NCBI GenBank assembly: GCA_934090795.1
Contig: CAKOJQ010000004.1
Location: 349 to 64,348, forward strand
Source: an uncultured Bacilli bacterium
Lineage (GTDB): Bacteria > Bacillota_I > Bacilli_A > RF39 > UBA660
Direction of reading: 5' to 3'
DNA: 64,000 nucleotides
Every line of letters starts with the position of its first letter. Positions within the stretch are counted from its first letter, which is position 1. Below, piece by piece: positions 29,510 to 43,689 of the stretch. Position numbers and translations under genes: made by a program. The notes under the pieces are model-generated. The model was not told where the DNA came from, did not search any database, and saw only the letters and a list, made by a program, of their open reading frames with translations.

Positions 29510-31019
29510 AGGTAAATTAGCGTTACATCCAATAATTTCATTTTGTATTTTAATGTTTATAATAGTTGTTTTAAGTGGTGTGCTTAATTTATTTAATGTT
29601 ACTACTACTTATAATAGAATTACTAATAATGGAACTTATGTTAGAGAATTAGTATCAAGTGAAAATTTATTTAGTTTACATGGATTAAAAGTTATATTTA
29701 GTAATGCAGTATCAAATTTTGCATCATTTGTTCCACTATCTATGTTAATTATTACGTTAATGGGTATTGGAGTAATGGATAAAACAGGATTTTTAGATTC
29801 GCTTTTTTATGTACTAACTAGAAATACGAATAAGAAAATTGTTACTTTTGTGTTATCGTTTGTTTGCATACTTTCTTCGATTGCTGGAGATTTGGGATAT
29901 ATTATTATGATTCCTTTAGCAGCTTTACTATTTAAATATGGAAAGAGACATCCGAAGGCGGGAATTATTTGTTCTTTTGCTTCAATTGCTTGTGGAAGTG
30001 GTATTAATATTTTTATGAGTAGTATTGATACTGCAGTAATTGCTTATACCAATCAAGCGGCTTCATTATTATCTAAAGATTATAGTATGGGAGTATTTTC
30101 TTTTATATTTGTAATGATTGTTGTGGCAATTGTACTAGCTTTAATTATTTCTAGTATTACTGAGAAGATAATTGTTCCAAAACTGGGACATTATGAACTT
30201 ATGGATGAGACAGAAGATTATTTAACTAAGAAAGAAAAAAGAGGATTATTAATTTCATTATTTTTTGGAGTTATTTATATAATAATTATAATTTATAATA
30301 TTATTCCTTATGCTCCACTTGGCGGCAATTTCTTAGATTATAGTCAAAAGTATTATATTGATAAATTATTTGGTTATAATAGTTTCTTTAGTCAAGGATA
30401 TGTTTTTGTAATTGTTATATTATTCTTTATATTAGGTTTTGTTTATGGTTTTGCAACTAAAAAAATAAAAACTGCTAAAGAAGTATTTGACTCTCTAAGT
30501 TATAGTTTAGATAAAATAGGAAATGTTTTAGTATTTATTTTCTTTGCTTCTAGTTTGATATTTATTTTTAAATCAAGTAATATAGGTAATTTAGTTGTAA
30601 GTTATTTTGCAAATCTTATTAATAGTGGTAATTTAAGCGGCATTGTACTTGTTGCTATAACATTTATATTTAGTGCTTTATCAACATTATTTTTACCTAG
30701 TACTTTAAGTAAATGGGCTATACTTAGTCCAACAGTGGTTCCTGCATTTATGAATGAGGGACTTAGTCCTGAATTTGCCACATTGATATTTAGAGCCGGA
30801 GAATGCATTACATATGGTTTAACACCGATAATGGCTTATTTCATTATTTATTTAGCATTTATGGAATTATATAGCGTAAATGAGGAAGATGGTTTATTTG
30901 GAAATATTAAATATTTGTTACCTTATTCTCTTTGTACACTTATTATGTGGTTAGTTATTATTTTACTTTTATATATAACGGGCATTCCTTTTGGTATTGG
31001 CGGTTATGTTGGATTATAG
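29487..31019 (+). CDS. AbgT-family (p-aminobenzoyl-glutamate-type) transporter
   Basis: 510 aa, about 12 TM helices, AbgT-like layout and motifs. Confidence 0.7.
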   Translation: MKRIKKIKGKLALHPIISFCILMFIIVVLSGVLNLFNVTTTYNRITNNGTYVRELVSSENLFSLHGLKVIFSNAVSNFASFVPLSMLIITLMGIGVMDKTGFLDSLFYVLTRNTNKKIVTFVLSFVCILSSIAGDLGYIIMIPLAALLFKYGKRHPKAGIICSFASIACGSGINIFMSSIDTAVIAYTNQAASLLSKDYSMGVFSFIFVMIVVAIVLALIISSITEKIIVPKLGHYELMDETEDYLTKKEKRGLLISLFFGVIYIIIIIYNIIPYAPLGGNFLDYSQKYYIDKLFGYNSFFSQGYVFVIVILFFILGFVYGFATKKIKTAKEVFDSLSYSLDKIGNVLVFIFFASSLIFIFKSSNIGNLVVSYFANLINSGNLSGIVLVAITFIFSALSTLFLPSTLSKWAILSPTVVPAFMNEGLSPEFATLIFRAGECITYGLTPIMAYFIIYLAFMELYSVNEEDGLFGNIKYLLPYSLCTLIMWLVIILLLYITGIPFGIGGYVGL

Positions 31020-31039
31020 GAACTTTAATAGTTCTTTTT
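31020..31039 (+). terminator. Rho-independent terminator candidate
   Basis: GAACT-TTAAT-AGTTC hairpin followed by T5. Confidence 0.55.
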
Positions 31040-31152
31040 CTTTACAATTAATTTACGATAAAATTTAAATTATTATTTATTGTTTTGGTATAATTTATTA
31101 TAATAATTATTGTAAAGGTAGAGTATCCTAAATTATTTGGGGTGGTGATAAT

Positions 31153-32268
31153 ATGGCTGGAAATGTTAAGGTTTTAACAAATGATTTGATAAATGATGGC
31201 ATATATGTAAAAAATGTATGTGATAATATTAAGGATAATTATGATAATGTAAATAATGTTATTTCAGATGTTTGTTTGACACTTAACTATTATAAAGAAC
31301 AACTTAGTTTAAAGTTTGAAGTGTTTCAAGAACATTCTAATACATTTAATGATAAGATAAATAATTGTGCTTTAGATTTAGAAAAAATTGATAATTTAAT
31401 TGGCAGTAATGTTACTAATTTACTAGGGAATGCGGACAATTTTGAATTTGGTGATAACAACTATTATGAATTAAGTACTATCACTTTAAAAACAAATGAT
31501 GGAATAAATATTGATATTGGCAATTTAGCAGATTTACCTGATAATGAACGAAAGACAGTATTAAATAAATTTTATAAAGAACTTGGTACTGCTGTTGTTA
31601 ATATTGAGAATGGCAATTATACATATCCTGGAACTAGTGATAATGATTTAGTAAATAGTTTAGTTAGACAATATTATGATAGTATTGTTAAGATTGATGC
31701 AAGTGGAAATGTTATTTATGAATCTAATGATTTAACAAAAAATAATTTTTATAATAGTGTTGTTAAAAAATATGGCGAGATTGCTAATGTACAAATTACT
31801 CCTAAAGATCTTCACTATGCTAGCAGAAATGGTAATCCATTAATTAGAGAAAATATTCAAGAATATAATTTACAATTTGCTGTTCAACAAACACCTACGG
31901 AAATTGGGCAGGAATATGATTTTTGTAAATGGGGACTTGTTAATGGTGATGAAAAAACGAGTGATTATTCAAAGCAATTATATGAAGAGACTGGATCTTA
32001 TCAAAGAGTATACTCTTACTATCCTGATGATTCAAAACATATGTTTATAGATCAATTTTATCTTTGCGATGATGGAATCTATAGAGATAAAGATGGCTAT
32101 ATTATTTGTGCTGATAAATATAACTTGGGATATAATGAAGATGGTACTAGCCATTGGGTTGGTCAAATAAATAGCGAAAATGCAGTTATTGTTGATACTC
32201 CATTTGGATTTGGTAAGGTTTATGATTCTTGTGGTCAAGGTAATATAGATATATATACACATTTTTGA
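31153..32268 (+). CDS. T7SS-associated protein: helical LXG/WXG-like N-terminus + C-terminal 3D-domain-like (MltA/DPBB-type) signature
   Basis: The first ~100 aa form a predicted helical hairpin ending NLLGNAD. The C-terminus AVIVDTPFGFGKVYDSCGQGNIDIY resembles the three-Asp 3D domain. First gene of the T7SS-like locus. Confidence 0.4.
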   Translation: MAGNVKVLTNDLINDGIYVKNVCDNIKDNYDNVNNVISDVCLTLNYYKEQLSLKFEVFQEHSNTFNDKINNCALDLEKIDNLIGSNVTNLLGNADNFEFGDNNYYELSTITLKTNDGINIDIGNLADLPDNERKTVLNKFYKELGTAVVNIENGNYTYPGTSDNDLVNSLVRQYYDSIVKIDASGNVIYESNDLTKNNFYNSVVKKYGEIANVQITPKDLHYASRNGNPLIRENIQEYNLQFAVQQTPTEIGQEYDFCKWGLVNGDEKTSDYSKQLYEETGSYQRVYSYYPDDSKHMFIDQFYLCDDGIYRDKDGYIICADKYNLGYNEDGTSHWVGQINSENAVIVDTPFGFGKVYDSCGQGNIDIYTHF

Positions 32269-32283
32269 GAGGAGAAATAAAAT

Positions 32284-32793
32284 ATGAAGGATAAAATTGC
32301 AAATTATTATGAGAATGTTGATGATGCAGCTATAAAACAGGCTGTTGAAAATTTTAGAAGTGTTTTAAATGAAGTTAATTATGAAAACGGTGATGGTTTA
32401 CCATTAAATACTCAAGCAAAATATGATAGTACATTTAACAATGGTACTAATTACTTAAAAAATACTGACATATTAGGCATGGTTCAATTATGTAATTCTT
32501 GTTTAGGAGTTGTTAGCAAAATTACAACATACAAAACTTATTATAGTGGTACTTATACTAATACATATAATGATTGTAGTACCAAGTATAATACTTATAC
32601 TAATGCCCCAAAAACAATTACTAAAACTGATGTAAACGGAAATATAATATATAGAGACGGACAGCCTGTACTTATTGATAATCCGAAAGTTGCAACATAT
32701 AAATCTGAATATATTAGTGCGTTAACTACTTTGGGGAATTGTGAAAAATATTTAAATGATTTGAAAAATAGTATTGAGTCTGTTTCTATCTAA
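32284..32793 (+). CDS. Hypothetical protein of the T7SS-like locus
   Basis: 169 aa, no TM helix, T/Y/N-rich middle, no recognisable domain. RBS GAGGAG upstream. Confidence 0.5.
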   Translation: MKDKIANYYENVDDAAIKQAVENFRSVLNEVNYENGDGLPLNTQAKYDSTFNNGTNYLKNTDILGMVQLCNSCLGVVSKITTYKTYYSGTYTNTYNDCSTKYNTYTNAPKTITKTDVNGNIIYRDGQPVLIDNPKVATYKSEYISALTTLGNCEKYLNDLKNSIESVSI

Positions 32794-32898
32794 ATTGTTT
32801 ACATAAATTTTACAGATTTTATTTAATAATTATTTATTAAAATAAATTAATAGTGTAAAATAATAATTGATATACAATATATGTGGATGTGAGGTATC

Positions 32899-33153
32899 AT
32901 GAATAAATATTTAGTTACTGTAATCGTTCCTGTTATTAATTTGACATTTGATGTTGAAATTCCTAATAATAGAAAAATTGGGACGATTAAAAAAATTTTA
33001 TTAGCCGAGGTTAATAGTAAAGCTAGCGGAATGTATAATAAAAGTTTTAATGATATTAGAGTAATTGATAGAGATAATGGTACTGAATATAGTAATGATA
33101 TGTATATTAAAGATTCTAAAATAATAAATGGATCAAAATTAATTTTGATTTAA
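32899..33153 (+). CDS. esaB: YukD/EsaB-like ubiquitin-fold protein
   Basis: 84 aa. Beta-grasp pattern ending INGSKLILI, like YukD (ITNGDRLEIL). Directly upstream of WXG100 genes. Confidence 0.6.
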   Translation: MNKYLVTVIVPVINLTFDVEIPNNRKIGTIKKILLAEVNSKASGMYNKSFNDIRVIDRDNGTEYSNDMYIKDSKIINGSKLILI

Positions 33154-33170
33154 TAGAAAGGAAAGAAGAA

Positions 33171-33458
33171 ATGGCTGTATTAAATATTGATACTGAAGGA
33201 GTAAGAGATATTGCTTCTATGATTTCTAATCAAGCTGATGAATTAGAAACTGAAATTAAGAGAATCAAAGAAAATCAAGAAAAACTAAATTCTTGTTGGA
33301 CTGGAGAAGCTGCAACTGCTGCTCAAGTTGCTTTAGATGAAGTAGTTGCTTTATATAATGATATGTTAGCTACAGTAAGAAGTACACATACTTCACTTGC
33401 AAGTGCTGCAAATTCATTTAGTGATACTGATACATCTAATGCTGGAATGTTTAAATAA
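33171..33458 (+). CDS. esxA: WXG100-family protein (EsxA-like)
   Basis: 95 aa helical hairpin with a central W-T-G (NSCWTGEAA). Strong RBS. Confidence 0.8.
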   Translation: MAVLNIDTEGVRDIASMISNQADELETEIKRIKENQEKLNSCWTGEAATAAQVALDEVVALYNDMLATVRSTHTSLASAANSFSDTDTSNAGMFK

Positions 33459-33477
33459 TTAGAAAGGAAAAAATAAA

Positions 33478-33780
33478 ATGGGAAAAATTTATATAGATTA
33501 CGAACAAGCTTCAGAAGTTATTGGAAATATAAATAGTGTTGTTAATGAAGTACAATCAACATTAGAATCAATTTCTGGTCTTTATTCAAGAATTAATAGT
33601 GGAGACGTTTATAGTGGTTTTTCTGCTGGTGAATATGAAGCTCGTTTTAATGAATTAAAGAAAACTGCATTTGTTAAAGTTCCTGAAGCAACATCAAAAG
33701 TAAATAGACTTTTAGCTGAAGCTAGAAATCAATATGCTGAAAATGAACAAAAAGCTGCAAATGCTGCAAATGGAAATTAA
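33478..33780 (+). CDS. WXG100-like partner protein (no W-x-G)
   Basis: 100 aa helical hairpin. The turn reads VYSGFSAGEY. Adjacent to the esxA-like gene. Confidence 0.55.
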   Translation: MGKIYIDYEQASEVIGNINSVVNEVQSTLESISGLYSRINSGDVYSGFSAGEYEARFNELKKTAFVKVPEATSKVNRLLAEARNQYAENEQKAANAANGN

Positions 33781-33829
33781 AGCATTTAAATATGCTTTGA
33801 CTAAAGAACTATTTAATTAATAGTTTTTT
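33779..33829 (+). terminator. Tandem hairpins / leaky terminator after the first esx pair
   Basis: AAAGCAT-TTAAAT-ATGCTTT, then AACTATT-TAATT-AATAGTT followed by TTTT. Confidence 0.45.
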
Positions 33830-33864
33830 GGTGAAAATATATTTGAATAATTAGGGAGGATATT

Positions 33865-34152
33865 ATGAAAATTGAATATAATATAGATGATTTAAGACAA
33901 TATTCTGAAAAGTTATTAGCTGAACATGAATCAATGGTTGGAGCTGTTACAAATTTAGAAGGACTTGTTTCTAGTTTTCAGGCAAATTGGTCAGGAGAAG
34001 CCCAAACAGCCTATATTGCTTTTTTTACAGATGCTATTGCGTCTTTGAAATCTTATTTAGAAGAATTTGATATTATTGCTCAAAATTTAAATACTGCTGC
34101 TGATTATTATGAAAAACATGAGGAAACATATACAAATTGCTTAGGTTTTTAG
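33865..34152 (+). CDS. WXG100-family protein
   Basis: 95 aa with a central W-S-G (ANWSGEAQ). GGGAGG RBS. Confidence 0.75.
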   Translation: MKIEYNIDDLRQYSEKLLAEHESMVGAVTNLEGLVSSFQANWSGEAQTAYIAFFTDAIASLKSYLEEFDIIAQNLNTAADYYEKHEETYTNCLGF

Positions 34153-34162
34153 GAGAGATTTT

Positions 34163-35566
34163 ATGGCGAATATAAAAGTAAATTATAGTGGTATTGCAAG
34201 TGATATTTCTACGTTATCTTCTAATGTAAAAAATATTTGTGATTCTTTAGATAAAGTTAATAATGTCGAAAATGTTATACCTGAATCATGGAGAAGCAAT
34301 GGTGCTGAACAATATAGAAGTGCTGTTGTAACTGATATTATTGCTCCAATTGCAAATTTTGAAGGAACTCTTACAGGACTAATTAAAATGCTTTCTGAGG
34401 TATCAGATAACTTTGATAATCTAGAAAATATTATTGGTAGTGAATTAAATAACTGGTTTAATGGTATGGTAGCAAGTGGCAAGGTATTAGATTTAGTTGC
34501 TGTTAGAGATGTATTGTTAAACTATGGAATAAATTATTTAACACAAGATGATACTTATTCTTCTATTCCTTATGGATCTGGAAGTTTAAAATCTGATGGA
34601 TGTGGTTTTTTCTCTATGGTTATGGCTTATCAATTAAAATCTGGTCATAATTTGACAATGGATGAAATTAAAAAGTTAGCGTATGCGAGTAGTGTAAATG
34701 GTGCACCTGGTGGAAATTATGATTTATCTTATAATACTGGTGTTAATTTAGGCTTAGATGTTAATAAGACTAGATATTCATCAATTAATGATGTTTATAA
34801 TGCTGTTAATGATGGAAAATCTGTTATTTTCTTAAATCGTGGTTCAACTCATTTTAGATTAATAACTGAAGTTAAACATACCGATAATGGTGATGTTTAT
34901 GTTGTTTATGATTCTGTTAAGAAAGAGTATCAGACTTGGACTGCTGATCAAGTTGCTAGTGAAGTTGCCGTAGGTAATGTAATTGAAGTTGGAAAATATG
35001 ATAAAAGTAAGGATAATCTTCAAGATAGTTCTTGGAATCCTGGAAATGCACCTCTTTCAAGTGATAGTGTAGAACCTGGAAATAGTGGTGTACATAATCC
35101 AAGTGAACCAACAACTCCAAGTGAGCCAACAACTCCAAGTGAGCCGACAACTCCAAGCAAGCCAACAACTCCAAGTGAGCCAACAACTCCAAGTAGGCCA
35201 ACAACTCCAAGTGAGCCAACAACTCCAAGTAAGCCAACAACTCCAAGTGAGCCAACAACTCCAAGTGAGCCAGCTACTCCAAGTGAACCAACAACTCCAA
35301 GTGAACCGACAACTCCAAGTGAGCCAGCTACTCCAAGTGAGCCGACAACTCCAAGTGAGCCGACAACTCCAAGTGAGCCATCAACTCCAAGTGAGCCATC
35401 AACTCCAAGTGAGCCAGCTACTCCAAGTGACGGTGATTTTGTTGATCGTTTGGGTGATACATCATTAGATTTTGGGGACGATATTGGAACAAATGATGAA
35501 ATATATGATAATTTAGATTTATCATTTACTGATAAGGCTGGAGATACGACAATTCATTTTGAATAA
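34163..35566 (+). CDS. Putative T7SS substrate: WXG-like N-terminus + C39-like papain-fold domain + PSEPTT repeat linker + acidic tail
   Basis: N-terminal helical hairpin with SWRSNGAEQY. Cys/His/Asp candidates in DGCGFFSMVMAY, GSTHFRLI and VVYDS. 18 PSEPTT-type repeats. D/E-rich 45-aa C-terminus. Confidence 0.6.
   Translation: MANIKVNYSGIASDISTLSSNVKNICDSLDKVNNVENVIPESWRSNGAEQYRSAVVTDIIAPIANFEGTLTGLIKMLSEVSDNFDNLENIIGSELNNWFNGMVASGKVLDLVAVRDVLLNYGINYLTQDDTYSSIPYGSGSLKSDGCGFFSMVMAYQLKSGHNLTMDEIKKLAYASSVNGAPGGNYDLSYNTGVNLGLDVNKTRYSSINDVYNAVNDGKSVIFLNRGSTHFRLITEVKHTDNGDVYVVYDSVKKEYQTWTADQVASEVAVGNVIEVGKYDKSKDNLQDSSWNPGNAPLSSDSVEPGNSGVHNPSEPTTPSEPTTPSEPTTPSKPTTPSEPTTPSRPTTPSEPTTPSKPTTPSEPTTPSEPATPSEPTTPSEPTTPSEPATPSEPTTPSEPTTPSEPSTPSEPSTPSEPATPSDGDFVDRLGDTSLDFGDDIGTNDEIYDNLDLSFTDKAGDTTIHFE
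35099..35422 (+). repeat. 18-bp tandem repeat x18 (in-frame, encodes PS[EKR]P[TAS]T)
   Basis: CCAAGTGAGCCAACAACT units counted directly. Variation is mostly at codons 3 and 5. Confidence 0.95.
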
Positions 35567-35575
35567 TTATAATTA

Positions 35576-35605
35576 ATATGAAAGCTATTTAGTTTTCATA
35601 TTTTT
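35576..35605 (+). terminator. Rho-independent terminator candidate upstream of essC
   Basis: ATATGAAA/TTTCATAT 8-bp stem, 10-nt loop, TTTT. Confidence 0.55.
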
Positions 35606-35659
35606 CTTTATTTAAATCATTAATTATTGTATAATCTTATTAGTATAGGAGGATACATT

Positions 35660-38600
35660 ATGCGTCTAAATATTATAAAAAATAATTATATTAAAAACGT
35701 AATATTACCAGATGAACCAAGTGGTTCTTATTGGATTAATTCATTTGATATTAATGGTAATAAAAGAAATTTAATTCTTGTTGAAGCTTATAATGGTAAA
35801 TGGAAATTAGTTAGTAATAATAATGTATATTATATTGAAAATAATGTAATGAATCCTTATGCCTATTTAGAAATAAGTAGTTATTATCAAATTAAAAATG
35901 AATTAGATAAGGATACCTTTGTAATATATTGTTCTCCTGTTGTTGAAAAGTATAATTGTTATGAAATTAACAGTTATATATCTAATGGAATAAGCATTGG
36001 TAAATCTAATAATAATTTTATTAAATTTGTAAATGTAGATGATGTTGCTTGTTATATAAAAACAATTAATGATAAATTAATTTTAATAAACAATAATAGT
36101 AGCTATGGTGTTTATTTAAATAATTCAAGGGTATATAGTAGTTCCGAGGTGAAAATTGGAGATATTATTTTTATTAATGGATTACGTATAATTGTTAGTT
36201 CTAGTGCAGCTGGGCTAAATAATATTGTTTTATATGTAAATAATGTAGATAATAGTGATATTAGTGTAGGGGCTATGCCTCTTGGAATTGTTAATTCCAT
36301 TGCTGGTGATTATACAGAAGATAATAGTGATAATGTATATGATATTTATAATGAAAATGATTATTTTTATAAAAAGCCAAGGGTTGTTCCTAAACTAGAT
36401 ACTTTAAATATAAAAGTTGATGATCCTCCTGCAAAACAAGATGGAAAAGATAGTCCTTTATTACTAACTATTGGACCTATGATAACTATGTCAATGTCAT
36501 CTCTAATGATGGGATATAATACTTTAAGTAATGTTACAAACGGAACAACTACAATTGAAAAAGCAACACCTTCTTTAATTGTTTGTGGTGCAATGTTTGC
36601 TAGTATATTTATATGGCCTTTAATTACTAAATTTTATCAAAAGATTGATAATAAAATAAAAGAGAAAAAGAGACAAAATAAATATAGTAAATATATAGAT
36701 AGTAAAATAGAAGAAATTAGTAAAGCTAAAAATGAACAAGCTTCTATGCTTAAAATGCATTATTTTTCAAGTGAACAATCAGCTGATGTTATAATAAATA
36801 AAAGTAGTTTAATGTGGCAGAGAAGAATTAGTGATGATGATTATTTATCTATAACTTTAGGTATTGGTAGTTGTCCAATGAAAATTAATATTAATTATCC
36901 TGAAGAACATTTTACAATGGAGGAAGATAATCTTAGAAGTTTAGTTTTAAGATTAGGTCAAGAACCTAAAAATTTAGAAAATGTTCCAGTTCCCTATTCT
37001 TTAAAAGAACATTATATAAGTGGTGTTTTTGGAATGAATTATTTACATGATTATGTTAAAAGAATGTTAATTCAATTATTAGCGTTTCATAGTTATGATG
37101 ATTTAAAAATAGTTATTTTAACTGATGAAGAACATGAGAGTGAATGGTCTTTTGTTAAGTGTGCACCACACCTATTTAGTGACGATAAAAGTATTAGATT
37201 TTTTGCTTCATCAGCAGAAGAATATAAAGAAGTATGTTACTATTTAAAACGTGTATTTGATAGTAGAAAAGATAATACCAGTGATAAAACTGAGTTTAAT
37301 CAAGTTTATTTAATAATAACTGATAGTTTTAAAAAGATTAGGGATATTGATTTAATCGAAGATATTTTAAAGAATAAACGTTACGCTGGATTTAGTATTT
37401 TTATAATGGATAAAAAGATGACTAATTTCCCAGATCAATGTACTTCTTTTATTGATTTAAGTTTAATTACTAATGATAATAAGATTGGAGAAGTTAAAGA
37501 TAATCTAGATATTAATAGTGTTGTTAGATTTAATGTTGAACTTAATACAATTATTGATTATGAAAAATGTGTTAAAGTTTTAGCTAATACTCCAATTGAT
37601 ATTAAAAATGATGTAGAAGGAAAACTTCCTAATAAGATAAGCTTCTTGGAAATGTATGAAGTTGGTAAAGTTGAACAATTAAATTCAAATGTTAGATGGA
37701 TGAGCAATGATCCTGTTATGAGTTTATCTGCACCAGTTGGAATAGGAAAAAATGGAGAGTTTATTACGATCGACCTTCATGAAAAATATCATGGACCACA
37801 TGGTCTAATTGCTGGTATGACTGGTTCTGGTAAATCTGAATTTATTATTACATATATTTTATCAATGGCTTTAAATTATAGTCCTTATGAAGTACAATTT
37901 ATTTTAATTGACTATAAGGGTGGCGGACTTGCTGGAGCGTTTGAAAATAAGACTACTGGCGTAAAATTGCCTCATTTGATAGGTACAATTACTAACTTAG
38001 ATGCAAATGAGATTAAAAGAAGTTTAGCATCTATTGAGTCTGAATTAAAGAGAAGACAGGCTTTATTTAATAAAGCGAGAGAAATAAGCGGTGAAAGTAC
38101 AGTTGATATATATAAGTATCAAAAAATGTATAGACAAGGTGTTTTAAGTGAACCTGTTTCACATTTATTTATAATTTGTGATGAGTTTGCAGAACTTAAA
38201 AATCAACAACCTGAATTTATGGATCAACTTATTTCAACAGCTCGTATTGGACGTTCACTCGGTGTTCACTTAATTTTAGCAACTCAAAAACCAAGTGGTG
38301 TAGTAGATCCACAAATTTGGAGTAATACAAGATTTAGAGTTTGTTTAAGAGTTCAAGATAAATCGGATAGTAATGAGGTTATTAAAAAGCCTGATGCTGC
38401 CTTTTTGAAGCAAACTGGTAGATTTTATTTCCAAGTTGGTTATGATGAAGTATTTACTTTGGGACAAGCTGCTTATGCTGGTGGATCTTATGTTCCATCA
38501 GATACAATAAAGAAAGAAATTGATACTTCAGTAGATTTTTTAAACAATATTGGATATATTATCAAAAAGGTTGAAACTAAAAAGATTGTAAAGAATTTAG

Positions 38601-40291
38601 CTAAATCGCAAGGTGAGGAGTTATCAAATATAGTTAAATATTTATCTGATTTAGCAGTTAGTCAAAATATAGTTTGTAAACCATTATGGCTTGCTAAGAT
38701 CCCACCAATTATTTTAGTTGATTACTTAAAAGAAAAATACAAATTTAAAAAAGAAGATTATGTATTTAATCCGATTATTGGTGAATATGATGTACCAGCA
38801 ATGCAGGAGCAAAGAATACTTACTTTGCCACTAACTAAAAATGGTAATGCGCTTGTATATGGAGCAGCTGGTAGTGGTAAAGAAAACTTTATTTCAACAT
38901 TAATTTATTCAGCTATGGATTCATATAAATCAAATGAGGTTAATTTCTATGTTATTGATTTAGGTTCAGGATCTTTAAATATGTTTAAAAATTCAAATAT
39001 CGTTGGAGATATATTACAAGGAACAGATACTGATAAAGTTGAAAATTTATTTAAAATGATTAATGGTACTATTTTGGAAAGAAAGAGATTATTTTCACAA
39101 TATGGTGGTTCTTATAAGGAATTTATTCAAAATAGTAATGTTAAAGTTCCAAATATAGTTGTTATAATTAATAACTTTGAAAATTATGCTGAAACATTTA
39201 GTAAATATGATGATATATTAAATACAATTACGCGTGATTGCTATAAGTATGGAATTTATTTTCTAATAACAGTTAATACTCCAAATGGGGTCAAATATAA
39301 GTTAAAACAAAATTTTGCTCTTATTTATGCGCTTAATCAAAATAATGATGATGATTTTAGCTATATTATTAATGGAGTTAGAAAAAATTATCCAGCTAAG
39401 AATTTTGGTAGAGGGTTAATTAAAATTGATAATGTATATGAGTTTCAAACAGCAGTTGCAACAGATGGAAATATGAGTGATTTCATTAAAGAAAAGATTA
39501 CTTTATTTAATGCAGAAAATATTTATAAAGCTAAAAGTGTTCCTGTTTTACCAGATGAAGTTACTTCAGAAAATATTATAAAAGATGTTAAACATGATGA
39601 TGAACTAGTAGTAGGAATTAGTAAAGATAATTTAGCTAATGTTAAATATGACTTAGGTAGAAACTTAATTAATGTTATTAGTGGGCTTGATTTATCAACA
39701 TATGATAGTTTTATAAATGCATTTGTTAATCAAATAGTTTATAAACAAAATAGAAATTTAGTATTATTAAATGCAGATGAATATAATTTAAATAGTGATA
39801 TTAAAAAGTATTATCAATATGTTGATAGAGATTTTGATGCCTTTATAGAAAAATTTAATGAATATTTAAAAACACTAGTTGAAAATTATAAGAATTCTGA
39901 TTTTGATAAAAATATCTTAAGTAATATAAAGCCGATTTATTTTATGGTAACTGGAGTTGATGCTTTCTTGAATAAACTTAGTATTACTAATAAGAAATTA
40001 TTAGATGAAATATTTAAAAATTCTAGTACTTTAGGAATTGTTAATTTCGTTTTAGTTGATTCTGTAGATAAGATTAAAAAGATTGAAATGGAATCTTGGT
40101 ATAGAAGTTATGCTAATAAGAATTTTGGTATTTGGCTTGGTTCAGGAATTTCTGATCAATTCTCTATTAATGTTATTCAAAGAACACCTTATATGCGTGG
40201 TGAGGTTCCTAATAGTTTCTGTTTTGTTGTTAATAGAGGTAAAGCAGAGTATGTTAAATATGTTGAAAAATTTGATATTAATAGTAAGTAG
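35660..40291 (+). CDS. essC: T7SS FtsK/SpoIIIE-family ATPase EssC
   Basis: N-terminal tandem FHA-like region, two TM helices and three P-loop modules. D1 is intact (GMTGSGKSEF, ICDEFAEL), D2 reads GAAGSGKE and D3 is degenerate. ATG at 35660 follows GGAGG. Confidence 0.9.
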   Translation: MRLNIIKNNYIKNVILPDEPSGSYWINSFDINGNKRNLILVEAYNGKWKLVSNNNVYYIENNVMNPYAYLEISSYYQIKNELDKDTFVIYCSPVVEKYNCYEINSYISNGISIGKSNNNFIKFVNVDDVACYIKTINDKLILINNNSSYGVYLNNSRVYSSSEVKIGDIIFINGLRIIVSSSAAGLNNIVLYVNNVDNSDISVGAMPLGIVNSIAGDYTEDNSDNVYDIYNENDYFYKKPRVVPKLDTLNIKVDDPPAKQDGKDSPLLLTIGPMITMSMSSLMMGYNTLSNVTNGTTTIEKATPSLIVCGAMFASIFIWPLITKFYQKIDNKIKEKKRQNKYSKYIDSKIEEISKAKNEQASMLKMHYFSSEQSADVIINKSSLMWQRRISDDDYLSITLGIGSCPMKININYPEEHFTMEEDNLRSLVLRLGQEPKNLENVPVPYSLKEHYISGVFGMNYLHDYVKRMLIQLLAFHSYDDLKIVILTDEEHESEWSFVKCAPHLFSDDKSIRFFASSAEEYKEVCYYLKRVFDSRKDNTSDKTEFNQVYLIITDSFKKIRDIDLIEDILKNKRYAGFSIFIMDKKMTNFPDQCTSFIDLSLITNDNKIGEVKDNLDINSVVRFNVELNTIIDYEKCVKVLANTPIDIKNDVEGKLPNKISFLEMYEVGKVEQLNSNVRWMSNDPVMSLSAPVGIGKNGEFITIDLHEKYHGPHGLIAGMTGSGKSEFIITYILSMALNYSPYEVQFILIDYKGGGLAGAFENKTTGVKLPHLIGTITNLDANEIKRSLASIESELKRRQALFNKAREISGESTVDIYKYQKMYRQGVLSEPVSHLFIICDEFAELKNQQPEFMDQLISTARIGRSLGVHLILATQKPSGVVDPQIWSNTRFRVCLRVQDKSDSNEVIKKPDAAFLKQTGRFYFQVGYDEVFTLGQAAYAGGSYVPSDTIKKEIDTSVDFLNNIGYIIKKVETKKIVKNLAKSQGEELSNIVKYLSDLAVSQNIVCKPLWLAKIPPIILVDYLKEKYKFKKEDYVFNPIIGEYDVPAMQEQRILTLPLTKNGNALVYGAAGSGKENFISTLIYSAMDSYKSNEVNFYVIDLGSGSLNMFKNSNIVGDILQGTDTDKVENLFKMINGTILERKRLFSQYGGSYKEFIQNSNVKVPNIVVIINNFENYAETFSKYDDILNTITRDCYKYGIYFLITVNTPNGVKYKLKQNFALIYALNQNNDDDFSYIINGVRKNYPAKNFGRGLIKIDNVYEFQTAVATDGNMSDFIKEKITLFNAENIYKAKSVPVLPDEVTSENIIKDVKHDDELVVGISKDNLANVKYDLGRNLINVISGLDLSTYDSFINAFVNQIVYKQNRNLVLLNADEYNLNSDIKKYYQYVDRDFDAFIEKFNEYLKTLVENYKNSDFDKNILSNIKPIYFMVTGVDAFLNKLSITNKKLLDEIFKNSSTLGIVNFVLVDSVDKIKKIEMESWYRSYANKNFGIWLGSGISDQFSINVIQRTPYMRGEVPNSFCFVVNRGKAEYVKYVEKFDINSK

Positions 40292-40299
40292 GTGTTTTA

Positions 40300-41343
40300 A
40301 TGTATATAATTATTAAGAATGAAAATAGTAGGATTATTAATAATTTAACTGTTAATGTGTCAAAAACATTAGTTGGTGATTTTACTAGAGAAGATTTAGA
40401 TAGAGAATTGAACTTAATTAATTATGATAAAGCTATTGTTGATATTACTTCAATTAGAAATTATTATGATGATAATTATTTATATAAATTTTTAGAATTT
40501 TTTAGAAGTCCAAGTGATGTTATATTGTTACTTAATGATGGGTTTGTTGCTAATAGTAAACATTTCTTAAGTAAATTAATTAGTAAAGGATATTATAATT
40601 TTGCTACTACTGATAGTGCAGTTAATAGACTTTTAGAAAGAAATAATACGATTGATGATGTTAAAGAATATATGGATGGAAATGATTTTCTTAAAACAGA
40701 TAGTATTGTTTCAGGAATTGATAAAAATAAAAAGTTTGAGACTGATAAGTTAATTATAGGTATTGAAAATGGTTTTCCTCATTCAGGAGCAACAACTTTA
40801 ATGTATATGCTTGTTAAAGAGATAGGTAAGAGTAAAAAAGTTAAAGGTATAGAAATGATAAATAATGATTCTTTGTTTTTTAGAGATGATAGAATTATTT
40901 CTTGTGAATCTAGAATTCAATTTGAAACTATTGTTAAAACATTAAATGACATTGATGTTTATATTGTTGATTTAAATGGTTCTGATGTTAGGGAAATATG
41001 TAATAAGGTTATTTATCTAATTGAACCTGGAACTACAAAGATTAATAAAGTTGTAAAGGGTGATAGAGAAATTTATGAGATGCTTAAGAATTCTAATGTT
41101 GTTTTAAATAGAAGTAATATTAAAGATGAAGAAATGAAAACTTTTGAATATGAAACTAAGTTTAAAGTTGTAGGTAATGTTCCTAATTTAAATGAGAGGT
41201 TGGATTCTAATGATTCTTTAACTAAATTAGTTGATTATTTACTTGATAATAAAGAAAAATATGAAAAACTTTCTAAGGATGATGACAATATTAATAAAAA
41301 AGTAGGCTTGGTTGGATTCTTTAAGAATATATTTAAGAGATGA
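40300..41343 (+). CDS. Receiver-like + degenerate MinD/ParA-like protein with C-terminal amphipathic helix
   Basis: aa 1-105 alternates beta and alpha like a CheY fold. aa 150-300 follows the MinD/ParA layout (LIIGIENGFPHSGATT, DVYIVDLNG, VVLNRSN, VVGNVPNL), but the Walker A lysines are absent. Tail KKVGLVGFFKNIFKR. 8-nt gap after essC. Confidence 0.5.
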   Translation: MYIIIKNENSRIINNLTVNVSKTLVGDFTREDLDRELNLINYDKAIVDITSIRNYYDDNYLYKFLEFFRSPSDVILLLNDGFVANSKHFLSKLISKGYYNFATTDSAVNRLLERNNTIDDVKEYMDGNDFLKTDSIVSGIDKNKKFETDKLIIGIENGFPHSGATTLMYMLVKEIGKSKKVKGIEMINNDSLFFRDDRIISCESRIQFETIVKTLNDIDVYIVDLNGSDVREICNKVIYLIEPGTTKINKVVKGDREIYEMLKNSNVVLNRSNIKDEEMKTFEYETKFKVVGNVPNLNERLDSNDSLTKLVDYLLDNKEKYEKLSKDDDNINKKVGLVGFFKNIFKR

Positions 41344-41350
41344 TAAAAAA

Positions 41351-41383
41351 AAATTGCAATTCTTTATGAGTTGCAGTTTTTTT
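41351..41383 (+). terminator. Rho-independent terminator closing the T7SS-like locus
   Basis: AAATTGCAA/TTGCAGTTT stem, 11-nt loop, T-run. Confidence 0.55.
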
Positions 41384-41463
41384 GTTGTAAAAATCATATA
41401 CATAATTGTTTTATAGGCCATTTTATTTAATTATGCATAAATTAATATAGGGTGTGATGATTA

Positions 41464-41505
41464 ATGGCTAAAAAGGTAGTAATTGATAGCGGTCATGGCA
41501 GATAA
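41464..41505 (+). pseudogene. 13-codon 5' stub resembling an N-acetylmuramoyl-L-alanine amidase (Amidase_3-type) start
   Basis: Encodes MAKKVVIDSGHGR-stop. xVIDxGHG is the usual N-terminal motif of this family. The frame ends 17 nt before the recombinase stop codon. Confidence 0.4.
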
Positions 41506-41521
41506 TCTTATACACGGTGCA

Positions 41522-43645
41522 TTATAAAGTAAAATTCCAAAATATTTTAATAGGTCTATTGTTATTTTCATCTTTTTTTCCTATTAGAATTTTTGATATA
41601 AATTCATCTATAATACGTCTATTTAATTTATCAATATGAGTATATTTTTCTAATATACTTTTTTCATTGATTTCATCATTTTTCTTTTCACTTAATTCAT
41701 ATATTTCCTTTTTAATTTCTTCAATTCTTAAATTAAAATTATCAATATCTTTTTGATATTTATTTTTTAACATAACAAATTCTGTAGTAGTAATTATTCC
41801 GTCAGCTTTATCATCATATAACATAGTAAAGCGGTCGCTTGTTTTATTCAACTTTTTTTCTATATCATTTTTTTCTTTTTCTAATATTTTCATATCTTTA
41901 TCATAATCAATACTAGACTTTTTTGATGAATAATTTTTTTCTAATTTTTCGAGATTATAATATTTTTCAATAATTTTATTTATTTCATTTAAAACTAATT
42001 CTTCAAGAACTTCGTATCTAATATAACTAGTATTATCACATTGAGTTCCGCCTGTTTTTCTGTGGTTTCTACAATGTAAATAAGGTTTCATAAAAGGATT
42101 CTTTCTTGGACCAGATTTGCAATTACTCTTTTGAAAAACTTTCCCACAAACAGCACAATATACTTTTCTACTGAAAATATGTACTTCGCCATTTTTACCA
42201 GGACGTGCTCTTGTATTTGATGTTGTTAAAATATCAACCTGATCAGTAATTAAAGAGTACAATTCACTATCAAGAGACAATGTTTTTTCTCTTAAATTAT
42301 CATATTTTTCAGTTATGATTTTAATATCATTATTTGTCAAACTATTATCTAATTCTTCTATTGCTCTATATACTTCATCATTTTTTCCTTTATCAACATC
42401 AAAGCTTTTAATATTTTCTTTAATAGCATTTATAAATTGTCTTGAATCTTTTCTTGCATTGTCCAAATCTATCTTTAACTTTCTGTCCGCAAATTTTTTT
42501 CTGACAATCTTAGAAATATCAGGATCTACAATTCTATCATGTGCACAAGCTATAATACTTTGCTCATTTTTAGGAATTTTTTTGTAACCCTTAATATTGT
42601 AAGCAATTTTTTCGGTCCTATGTTGTATCAAAATGCCGTCATAAGTTTCATCTAATAGGATCTTTCTTATTGTATCGGTATTCCAAAATTCTGCACCATT
42701 AGGAGCCATGCAACAAACAAATTTTAATCCTTGTAGTTTTTTATGCTTACTAGGTGTTGGTATCTTATTTTCATTAAGATATTGGCAAATTTTATAATAT
42801 CCATATCCATTAGCATACATAGAATATATTTCTCTTACAACTTTAGCAGCTTCTTCATCAATTACTAGATGATACATATCATCAGGATCTTCAATATAAC
42901 CATAAGGAGCAAAGGAACCGGTCCATTGTCCTGCGTCATTTTTGGCTCTTAAAGTTTTTTTAGTATTTATTGATTGTTCTTCAATTTTCCACTCATCTAC
43001 CATTGCAGTTATTTGACTTGATTTTTTATTACCTTTGTTGTAAGTATCAATATTATCTACAATACTTAAAAATCTAATATTCCATTCTATAAACTTTTTA
43101 TGTAAATATTTTTCTACGAATTCAATACTTCTTGCAAATCTAGCTTGAGTTTTACAAATATAAATATCTGTATTTCCAAGTTCACAGAACAAAAGTGTTT
43201 TGTTCCATTCTTCACGTGAACCATCACTTCCACTTATATCTTCTTCATAAAAAATACCGACAACCTCAATACCTTTGTCATTACAATATGATAATAACAT
43301 TAATAATTGATTTAAAATACTTTTACTAACATTGCCTTTTTCTCTATCTAAGTCCTCTTGAGATAATCTAACATATATTATTCCTCTTTTGCCGGGAATA
43401 TGTAAAGAACTAATTAATCCATTTTTTTTAAAACAATTAGGATTATTTTTTTTAGATACTTTTAATAAATCTCTTAAATAATCAGTCATATATTCTAAAT
43501 TATCTTCGGATAGCAATTTTTTTATTGTTTTAAATTCAGTTGTTTCTAAATAGTCATCTCCCGAAACATTATCAACTATATAGTCATTTGAACATACTGT
43601 ATTACTTAAATTACTACATACCACCTTTCTCTCATTTTTCAACAT
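41522..43645 (-). CDS. Large serine recombinase (integrase/excisionase of the element)
   Basis: Resolvase-type N-terminal domain (IIYVRLSQEDLD), recombinase domain, Cys-rich zinc ribbon (CAVCGK...CRNH...C) and a long coiled coil. ATG at 43645 follows AAAGGAAG. Confidence 0.9.
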   Translation of the reverse strand: MLKNERKVVCSNLSNTVCSNDYIVDNVSGDDYLETTEFKTIKKLLSEDNLEYMTDYLRDLLKVSKKNNPNCFKKNGLISSLHIPGKRGIIYVRLSQEDLDREKGNVSKSILNQLLMLLSYCNDKGIEVVGIFYEEDISGSDGSREEWNKTLLFCELGNTDIYICKTQARFARSIEFVEKYLHKKFIEWNIRFLSIVDNIDTYNKGNKKSSQITAMVDEWKIEEQSINTKKTLRAKNDAGQWTGSFAPYGYIEDPDDMYHLVIDEEAAKVVREIYSMYANGYGYYKICQYLNENKIPTPSKHKKLQGLKFVCCMAPNGAEFWNTDTIRKILLDETYDGILIQHRTEKIAYNIKGYKKIPKNEQSIIACAHDRIVDPDISKIVRKKFADRKLKIDLDNARKDSRQFINAIKENIKSFDVDKGKNDEVYRAIEELDNSLTNNDIKIITEKYDNLREKTLSLDSELYSLITDQVDILTTSNTRARPGKNGEVHIFSRKVYCAVCGKVFQKSNCKSGPRKNPFMKPYLHCRNHRKTGGTQCDNTSYIRYEVLEELVLNEINKIIEKYYNLEKLEKNYSSKKSSIDYDKDMKILEKEKNDIEKKLNKTSDRFTMLYDDKADGIITTTEFVMLKNKYQKDIDNFNLRIEEIKKEIYELSEKKNDEINEKSILEKYTHIDKLNRRIIDEFISKILIGKKDENNNRPIKIFWNFTL

Positions 43646-43689
43646 ATATCTTCCTTTCGTATATATTGAAAGCACTGTAATACAATCAA

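Follow-up and report, generated by a model that had tools for sequence, protein, structure and literature searches.

A candidate reduced type VII secretion module related to T7SSe in uncultured gut Bacilli

Genes of the locus

We describe here a locus resembling a type VII secretion system (T7SS) on a 64-kb stretch of DNA from an uncultured Bacilli bacterium; this whole stretch is referred to as the window, and all coordinates are positions in it. Nine open reading frames (ORFs), named o1 to o9 in their order, occupy positions 31153 to 41343, all on the + strand, as had been laid out in an earlier reading of the sequence alone. The same reading had placed an AbgT transporter on one side of the block and a mobile element on the other, and both neighbours were recovered, the former through PF03806 (E = 1e-103) upstream of the T7SS genes and the latter as an integrative conjugative element (ICE) from about position 41499. 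The gaps between the ORFs measure 8 to 105 nt and therefore leave no room for hidden ORFs in the cluster. ORFs were called and scanned with Pfam and NCBIfam models, and transmembrane (TM) helices were sought with Kyte-Doolittle 19-residue windows; related loci and proteins carry L and P numbers as labels. The general T7SS core is complete at the locus, with an EssC/EccC-family ATPase, WXG100 proteins and a member of the YukD family. The G+C content of the window is about 25%, and a promoter and terminator scan of positions 30900 to 41700 was uninformative in DNA of this composition (84 sites versus 86 expected).

The ATPase, EssC (o8, 35660-40291, + strand), matches the NCBIfam equivalog TIGR03928 with 952.2 bits against a cut-off of 778.4 (residues 245 to 1544), and its best sequence match in the PDB is YukB of Bacillus subtilis (3e-117). 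The mechanical ORF begins earlier, at TTG 35627; the true start is probably ATG 35660, which lies behind an AGGAGG site, yields a protein of 1543 aa and is the choice of independent gene callers as well. Pfam detected FtsK_SpoIIIE (PF01580, 6e-45) and, weakly, FHA (0.007). The FHA-domain segment (35993-36115) has a degenerate phosphothreonine-binding triad, as seen in an alignment to TseC, TsdC and TsjC, ATPases of published T7SS subtypes introduced below, and to 75 EssC homologues. Two hydrophobic segments at residues 278 to 297 and 316 to 334, in the numbering of the ORF from 35627 (Kyte-Doolittle maxima of 1.45 and 2.01; 36458-36628), align with both TM helices of TseC (Fig. S2, PMC11217815). 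No other protein of the block reached the TM threshold, so EssC is indeed its sole TM-helix protein, as the sequence-only reading had it. Canonical Walker A and B motifs are confined to the first ATPase domain, D1 (37814-38185, with GMTGSGKS at 37814-37837 and FIICDE at 38168-38185); D2 carries GAAGSGKE (38861-38884), and a motif search found no Walker A motif or P-loop in D3. The earlier description of this protein was thus right as to its identity, its weak FHA region and its two TM segments, and only partly right in crediting it with three P-loops.

The YukD/EsaB (TsxB)-type ubiquitin-like protein, o3 (32899-33153, 84 aa), gave a sub-threshold match to PF08817 (E = 0.018) and a match to UBL_UBAC1 (E = 0.0023) when scanned alone. 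At the level of its family, which has 68 members and adjoins EssC in 67 loci, PF08817 was matched by 10 of the 36 members scanned, with a best E value of 3.7e-7, and at this level the assignment proposed earlier is borne out. Three small genes of the WXG100 group follow. Two of them, o4 (33171-33458, 95 aa, W-T-G) and o6 (33865-34152, 95 aa, W-S-G), match PF06013 and TIGR03930 (4.1e-14 and 1.5e-14, above cut-off, for o4; 2.4e-13 and 6.4e-12 for o6). Between them lies o5 (33478-33780, 100 aa), which has no W-x-G, matches TIGR03930 at 1.9e-6 and PF06013 at 6.6e-4, both below the cut-offs, and groups with the WXG100 family by BLAST; this agrees with the two W-x-G proteins and one WXG-less partner counted previously. 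Further upstream, o2 (32284-32793, 169 aa), in which no TM helices were found by the Kyte-Doolittle method, is an extended WXG100-like helper protein. Its cluster (c72) aligns with a family of about 160-aa proteins present in 20 related loci (c5; hhalign probability 94.9%, E = 4.6e-8), the N-terminus of which aligns with the WXG100 cluster (94.3%).

Two larger proteins had been proposed to carry WXG/LXG-like heads, and for both of them weak matches of this kind were found. The first, o1 (31153-32268, 371 aa), is an effector candidate in which a disordered linker connects an N-terminal WXG/LXG-like helical hairpin to an alpha/beta domain at the C-terminus. In its AlphaFold2 (AF2) model (pLDDT 76), helices span residues 9 to 34 and 42 to 84, and the top Foldseek matches of this hairpin are WXG100 structures of the EsxA/EsxB type, albeit weak ones (E of about 1, TM-score to target 0.5 to 0.7). 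The C-terminal domain gave no PDB match with Foldseek and no sequence match, and none of the 42 homologues of o1 carries a Pfam domain. In three distant relatives (P0280-P0282), the N-terminal third of o1 is fused to GDPD or esterase domains, and a head that is joined to other domains in relatives fits the pattern of polymorphic T7 effectors.

The second, o7 (34163-35566, 467 aa), combines a WXG-like head (residues 1 to 110; WXG100, 1e-3) with a papain-like domain of the Peptidase_C39_2 type (residues 112 to 290, approximately; C39_2, 6.7e-4), followed by P-T-T-P-S-E repeats and a conserved acidic tail (...DNLDLSFTDxxGxTTIHFE). A homologue search with the full-length protein was largely swamped by the Pro/Thr/Ser repeats of o7, which drew in LPXTG and SLAP proteins, and was repeated with the globular domain. 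Relatives of this domain match Peptidase_C39_2 at up to 5e-28, often also carry a Hydrolase_2 cell wall hydrolase domain, and share an invariant Cys147/His230/Asp250 triad. The suggestion that the locus encodes two wall-hydrolase proteins consequently holds for o7, which has the C39_2-type domain and the triad, and was dropped for o1, the C-terminal domain of which matches nothing. As a separate observation, members of the wider o7 family, including P0122-P0134, join a WXG-like head through a long linker of Pro/Ser/Thr repeats to a C-terminal tail of strong conservation (...DYDFVDNSGNTAISF...DNLDLSFTDEEGKTTIHFD), and most of them do not have the peptidase insert of the window protein. The tail may serve as a signal for secretion or for anchoring.

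In the subclade to which the window belongs, the gene directly upstream of EssC nearly always encodes an effector of the peptidoglycan hydrolase type, namely of the C39_2 type in the window and L001 and of the Phage_lysozyme2 type in L002-L005, L014, L026, L029, L060, L087 and L089. Such a hydrolase could be directed at competitors, or it could make way for the machine through the wall of the producer itself. In the subclade there is no immunity gene between the hydrolase gene and EssC, and none is obvious after o1 or o7. An effector without an immunity gene is unusual for antibacterial T7SS toxins. The probable exports of the module are a papain-like (C39_2-type) peptidase on a Pro/Thr-rich stalk and a second effector, and both would most likely act on cell envelopes, be it the producer's own wall or that of a competitor.

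Compared with L001, a locus of 84% identity, ratios of nonsynonymous to synonymous substitution rates (dN/dS) were 0.13 for EssC, 0.16 for YukD, 0.35 for the WXG100 genes, 0.50 for o2 and 0.62 for o7. Low values for EssC and YukD and higher ones for o2 and o7 point to a working and diversifying secretion system, not to decay. Divergence along EssC peaks in two places, over the first 300 residues, which include the FHA region, and in D3. In T7SSb biology, divergence is expected in the partner- and substrate-recognition regions of EssC. The pattern resembles the modules of essC variants known from Staphylococcus and Listeria, with the associated effectors encoded upstream in the present locus. 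In a comparison with L014, residues 1 to 300 and 1300 to 1500 of EssC (35627-36526 and 39527-40126) are 45 to 55% identical and D1 is about 90% identical, with a flanking abgT at 93% identity.

Relationship to T7SSe and related loci

Garrett, Higginson and Palmer recently described eight T7SS subtypes, T7SSc to T7SSj, which all do without EssA, EssB and EsaA and share TsxA (WXG100), TsxB (YukD) and TsxC (EssC); their catalogue was built from RefSeq (PMC11217815). In the library of papers that was searched, none of later date treats a system of this kind in gut lineages that are RF39-like or "Tenericutes". For comparison, the N-terminal 700 to 970 residues of ten TsxC representatives were rebuilt from Fig. 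S2 of that work (PMC11217815). The window EssC is closest to TseC, the ATPase of T7SSe, with 614 bits and 39.6% identity over 967 columns from residue 12, as compared to 474 for TsdC, 473 for TsiC, 464 for Staphylococcus aureus EssC and 459 for TsfC; these references are partial, covering roughly the first 900 residues, and contain machine-reading errors. In a tree made by neighbour joining (NJ) only, with 100 bootstraps, all 79 sampled loci and TseC form one clade (95%) to which TsdC is sister, and the window EssC is nested in a subclade of Bacilli metagenome-assembled genomes (MAGs) within it. TseC and TsdC also have no D3 P-loop at the position in question in the published alignment. These comparisons indicate that the window T7SS is a reduced descendant of the T7SSe lineage and not a reduced T7SSb; the T7SSb-like assignment of the sequence-only reading does not hold, given the higher score of TseC and the 95% clade. 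Its further suggestion of an undescribed minimal or alternative architecture survives in part, in that layouts without EssA, EssB and EsaA have been published and this particular variant has not.

The related loci were gathered by an EssC scan of one genome per GTDB species, which returned 79 loci, and ORFs were clustered within ±10 kb of EssC. About 60 of these loci come from gut MAGs labelled as uncultured Bacilli, Tenericutes or Mycoplasma, one of them being Candidatus Faecisoma (Mycoplasmatota incertae sedis at NCBI), and the other 19 come from Clostridia/Lachnospiraceae, at 33 to 38% identity. The window and its 60 relatives of the first kind are treated below as the Bacilli-type set (n = 61). 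The EssC ORF of 1543 codons is intact in more than 70 loci that range from 33 to 94% identity. Around EssC, only YukD and WXG100-type proteins are conserved in the Bacilli-type loci, and the module occupies the same parA-parB-abgT position in distant members (L041 and L052), which suggests long vertical inheritance.

The T7SSe system comprises, in addition to the core, a kinase, a PPM phosphatase, a DUF6382-FHA protein, the giant protein TseI and two single-TM proteins, and in T7SSd and T7SSe the FHA domain of the ATPase retains the phosphothreonine triad GR...SxxH...NG (PMC11217815). Profile hidden Markov models of accessory proteins were built from the Clostridia-type loci and searched against six-frame translations. 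The profiles for PP2C, the Ser/Thr kinase and two of three FHA-protein families each hit 12 to 17 of the 19 Clostridia-type loci, and the other profiles hit 2 to 9 of them. None of the 61 Bacilli-type loci, the window included, contained a hit for PP2C, the Ser/Thr kinase, any of the three FHA-protein families, a TseI-like protein or LytTR. The triad shows the same division among the 75 homologues aligned: 17 of the 19 Clostridia-type loci have it in full, and most of these also encode PP2C, the Ser/Thr kinase and FHA proteins, while it is incomplete in every Bacilli-type locus. In the window, EssC has GK/D-D-V-A/Y-G in place of GR/SxxH/NG. It thus appears that the Bacilli lineage lost the T7SSe circuit of kinase, phosphatase and FHA proteins along with the large wall-spanning TseI, and that the control circuit and the FHA pocket reading it vanished together.

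The absence of the canonical T7SSb membrane partners at the locus, the central point of the sequence-only reading, was upheld. No Pfam or NCBIfam match to EssB/YukC, EsaA/YueB or EssA/YueC at E <= 0.1 was obtained in the block, the TM scan of the block was negative for such partners, and no protein of these types was found among the other membrane proteins examined in the 64-kb window. Comparison with related genomes gave the same picture, with no conserved TM partner within ±10 kb of EssC in the 60 related Bacilli/Tenericutes gut MAG loci. The lack of EssB, EsaA and EssA beside EssC is therefore lineage-wide and not a local accident. A T7SSb with a diverged EssB was considered separately and rejected, there being no TM or pseudokinase candidate at the locus.

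It is conceivable that the system is split, with further dedicated membrane proteins, whether analogues of EssB, EsaA and EssA or of TseH, TseI and TseK, or members of an unknown family, encoded outside the locus in these reduced genomes. Extra membrane components are needed by all T7SSs that have been studied experimentally (PMC11217815, PMC12637312), the view taken of each locus spans ±10 kb, and Garrett et al. warn that neighbourhood analysis can overlook components (PMC11217815). However, some 60 species-level loci have no conserved TM neighbour, core genes cluster with the ATPase in all described subtypes, and the T7SS block behaves as a self-contained presence/absence unit of 9.3 kb, as described below. 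A split system is, in our view, unlikely, although it is the strongest of the competing explanations.

Two other arrangements were seen among the related loci. L047 (8234-16000) contains two tandem EssC genes, each with its own YukD. Additionally, nine Lachnospiraceae/Clostridia loci (L063, L066, L069, L072, L074-L076, L078 and L079) share a recurrent order of LytTR regulator, EssC, YukD and two WXG100 genes, followed by a Big_2 protein of about 680 aa with an N-terminal TM helix or signal, small helical proteins and a vWA-TM-FHA protein, with PP2C and Ser/Thr kinase genes nearby. This order may represent another variant that is not obviously any single published subtype, T7SSe or T7SSj.

The MinD-like neighbour and adjoining elements

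The last ORF of the block, o9 (40300-41343, + strand, 347 aa), encodes a protein with the fold of MinD and ParA and a deviant nucleotide-binding loop. Its AF2 model (pLDDT 79) consists of an N-terminal alpha/beta domain and a C-terminal SIMIBI P-loop fold, and Foldseek matched it to MeaB, MinD, HypB, FleN and FlhG (E = 2e-5 to 2e-4, probability 1.0). The P-loop reads G-F-P-H-S-G-A-T-T, within a family invariant of G-x3-H-[SA]-G-A-T-T, and departs from the deviant Walker A motif K-G-G-x-G-K-[ST] in that both lysines are gone in all 35 aligned members. No Pfam or NCBIfam model matched o9, including TadZ_N, ParA and CbiA, and a profile search of PDB sequences was empty even at E <= 10; when 35 family members were compared with Pfam, only two weak AAA_26 matches appeared. 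The C-terminal tail of o9 (GLVGFFKNIFKR) resembles the membrane-targeting sequence of MinD, and most family members end in a similar G-Phi-Phi-x-x-Phi-F-K-K, which suggests that the tail may bind the membrane. The description of o9 as a MinD/ParA-like pseudo-ATPase was accordingly correct.

The sequence-only reading had also placed this protein in the T7SS in lieu of the usual partners, which is a separate matter. As a genuine component, o9 would be a peripheral membrane scaffold or positioning factor replacing partners of the EssB or kinase type, comparable to TsfV, the TadZ/ParA/MinD-like protein of the published subtype T7SSf, which has TadZ-like_ARD and ParA/MinD-type matches (PMC11217815). 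The o9 gene lies on the same strand as EssC, starting 8 bp past its stop codon, and is the next gene after EssC in 9 loci. In L060, L087 and L089 its homologue instead opens the T7SS cluster, which is an independent second case of adjacency. The MinD fold, the MinD-like tail and a dN/dS of 0.17 to 0.21 would likewise suit such a role. Against it, o9 is missing from 48 of the 60 other Bacilli-type T7SS loci. Five sampled homologues (36 to 43% identity) lie inside a gene cluster resembling a type IV secretion system (T4SS) with no EssC within 10 kb, and in L002, L004 and L005 the homologue sits in the same type of cluster, 7 kb downstream of EssC. Furthermore, in L091, a near relative, o9 (59% identical) comes right after abgT and a T7SS is absent, and a blastn comparison identified window positions 31020 to 40290 as exactly the piece that is absent from it (L091 9875-10000). 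Within the lineage, the module is therefore present or absent as a unit and, given this boundary and the contexts in which o9 occurs, ends at the EssC stop codon, with o9 as a neighbour. In comparison with TsfV, which was compared by its description only, o9 shares the two-domain layout of an N-terminal alpha/beta domain and a SIMIBI P-loop fold, but it has no sequence match to the TadZ_N or ParA models, has no Walker A lysines, belongs to a family that is found mainly in the T4SS-like cluster and persists without a T7SS, and is not accompanied by TsfF or TsfJ. Taken together, o9 is probably not a part of the T7SS, and we give the scaffold model only a small chance of being correct. An assignment of the locus to T7SSf on the basis of a TsfV-like o9 was also tried and rejected, the ATPase not being TsfC-like and o9 lying outside the T7SS presence/absence block.

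The T4SS-like cluster itself is a conserved chromosomal feature of the lineage (L084, 3116-20868; L002, 14777-24550; also L085, L086, L088 and L090). In order, it comprises cadherin-like surface proteins, two small ORFs of about 80 and 150 aa and the o9-family pseudo-ATPase; several proteins that lack annotation come next, then a TraC-like protein (PF26593), a VirB4-like ATPase of 596 aa and a hydrolase with M23 and lysozyme domains. The cluster often adjoins dnaB/dnaI and lies directly downstream of the T7SS in L002, L004 and L005; no relaxase was seen within 10 kb of it. The small ORFs beside the o9 homologue of L002 look pilin- or TadE-like by eye, have no Pfam match, and are not claimed as such. 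Downstream in L091 and L011 lies a set of DUF2397, DUF2398, an SbcC-like protein and DUF2399, which we take to be a defence system of the Wadjet/JetABCD type.

The ICE (41499-64000, - strand) was recognised by its Pfam matches and a synteny break, with synteny to L001, L003 and L006 ending at 41498; its far end lies beyond the window. Its genes encode a large serine recombinase (41522-43675), a C5 DNA methylase, a T4 coupling protein, a MobL relaxase, an M23 peptidase, a VirB4-like ATPase, a TrbL/VirB6-like protein, a sortase and a SpaA/thioester-domain adhesin. L083, which has an identical o9, carries Amidase_3 where the ICE sits in the window, and the ICE is therefore variably present. The idea that EssC is part of a conjugative element was rejected, the ICE beginning at 41499 and being absent from strains with the same T7SS.

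A proposed three-part module and its relation to known systems

The reading that we favour, with moderate confidence, is that positions 31153 to 40291 form one co-directional T7SS module, which is derived from T7SSe and stripped to three near-universal parts plus cargo. In the structure from B. subtilis, the TM helices of YukB lie at the channel centre and YukD binds YukB (PMC12637312). By extension from the T7SSa and T7SSb structures, EssC would form a hexamer whose 12 TM helices would be the only dedicated membrane channel, and YukD would bind the FHA/DUF region of EssC and stabilise the assembly. WXG100 hetero- or homodimers and the 169-aa helper o2 may pack together with the helical heads that o1 and o7 carry to give composite export signals, which the divergent C-terminal D3 would recognise, and D1, as the sole ATPase domain with canonical motifs, would power export. 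A stronger form of this proposal, which we put forward tentatively and hold to be rather unlikely, is that this is the smallest natural T7SS, in which EssC is the sole conduit and YukD the only machine partner, with no kinase, pseudokinase or wall-spanning protein, and in which the exported hydrolase opens the producer's own wall and so replaces the role proposed for EsaA and TseI.

Several points weigh against the three-part module. The systems studied experimentally, namely T7SSa and T7SSb, all require additional membrane proteins (PMC11217815, PMC12637312). The partner search covered ±10 kb around each EssC and the 64-kb window, and partners could lie elsewhere. The nucleotide-binding motifs of D2 and D3 are degenerate, the subtype assignment draws on partial TsxC references and an NJ tree, and an antibacterial role of the effectors is only putative, neither being accompanied by an immunity gene. 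That the locus is a decaying, non-functional remnant of a T7SSe system after partner loss, as the disappearance of essential-looking T7SSe components, the degenerate FHA pocket and D2/D3 motifs and the missing block in L091 might suggest, is very improbable in view of the full-length EssC ORF kept across more than 70 loci, the dN/dS of 0.13 to 0.16 for EssC and YukD, the canonical D1 motifs, and effectors that, like those of active T7SS loci, diversify and have a modular build.

It is still debated which T7SS parts form the channel, and the systems studied so far carry several extra membrane proteins. In this regard, common gut bacteria, at least 55 of whose species-level genomes keep only EssC, YukD and WXG100 proteins under purifying selection, would offer a minimal set of natural origin for structural studies and reconstitution. 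The lineage also provides a clean evolutionary example, in which the loss of a kinase, phosphatase and FHA-protein circuit goes along with the decay of a phosphothreonine pocket in the ATPase. Furthermore, these loci extend the RefSeq-based T7SSc-j catalogue to uncultured lineages and suggest that gut Bacilli with reduced genomes, the former "Tenericutes", use type VII secretion with envelope-directed effectors.

Among the known systems, T7SSb, represented by Ess of Staphylococcus and Yuk/Yue of Bacillus, resembles the window locus in having an EssC with an N-terminal FHA region whose phosphothreonine pocket is not conserved, a YukD/EsaB protein, WXG100 proteins, effectors with helical heads and small helical partners, and DUF4176 occurs in related loci. 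It differs in possessing EssB/YukC, EsaA/YueB and EssA/YueC, and the window ATPase falls outside the T7SSb branch. The T7SSf phosphatase TsfF, the DUF6382-2TM-FHA protein TsfJ and a TsfC-type ATPase are all absent from the window locus. T7SSg (TsgA1, TsgA2, TsgB, TsgC and TsgL) has a similarly simple composition, with two WXG100 paralogues, YukD and an ATPase that alone among the core proteins has predicted TM helices (PMC11217815). However, TsgC has no FHA domains, is distant and groups with TsfC in the NJ tree, whereas the window EssC has a TseC-like FHA N-terminus; moreover, T7SSg includes the DUF5050 beta-propeller TsgL and adjoins Tad pilus genes, neither of which occurs at the window locus, and a Pfam scan of the window gave no DUF5050 match.

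T7SSe differs from the window in having the TseD Ser/Thr kinase, the TseF PPM phosphatase and the TseJ DUF6382-FHA protein, the giant Sec-dependent, Ig-like TseI with its C-terminal TM helix, and the single-TM proteins TseH and TseK. The FHA triad, which is conserved at 98 to 100% in TseC (Table S1, PMC11217815), is lost in the window, and the hosts of the window system are uncultured gut Bacilli/"Tenericutes"-like MAGs that are absent from RefSeq. On the other hand, the window ATPase is TseC-like over its N-terminal 950 residues, a stretch that takes in the FHA region as well as the TM2 motif WPL(I/L)TK, and the two systems have in common non-identical WXG100 paralogues, a YukD-like protein and a D3 without a P-loop. 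The idea of non-canonical T7SSs was thus already published in 2024, and what is new here is a more reduced variant that is widespread in uncultured gut Bacilli.

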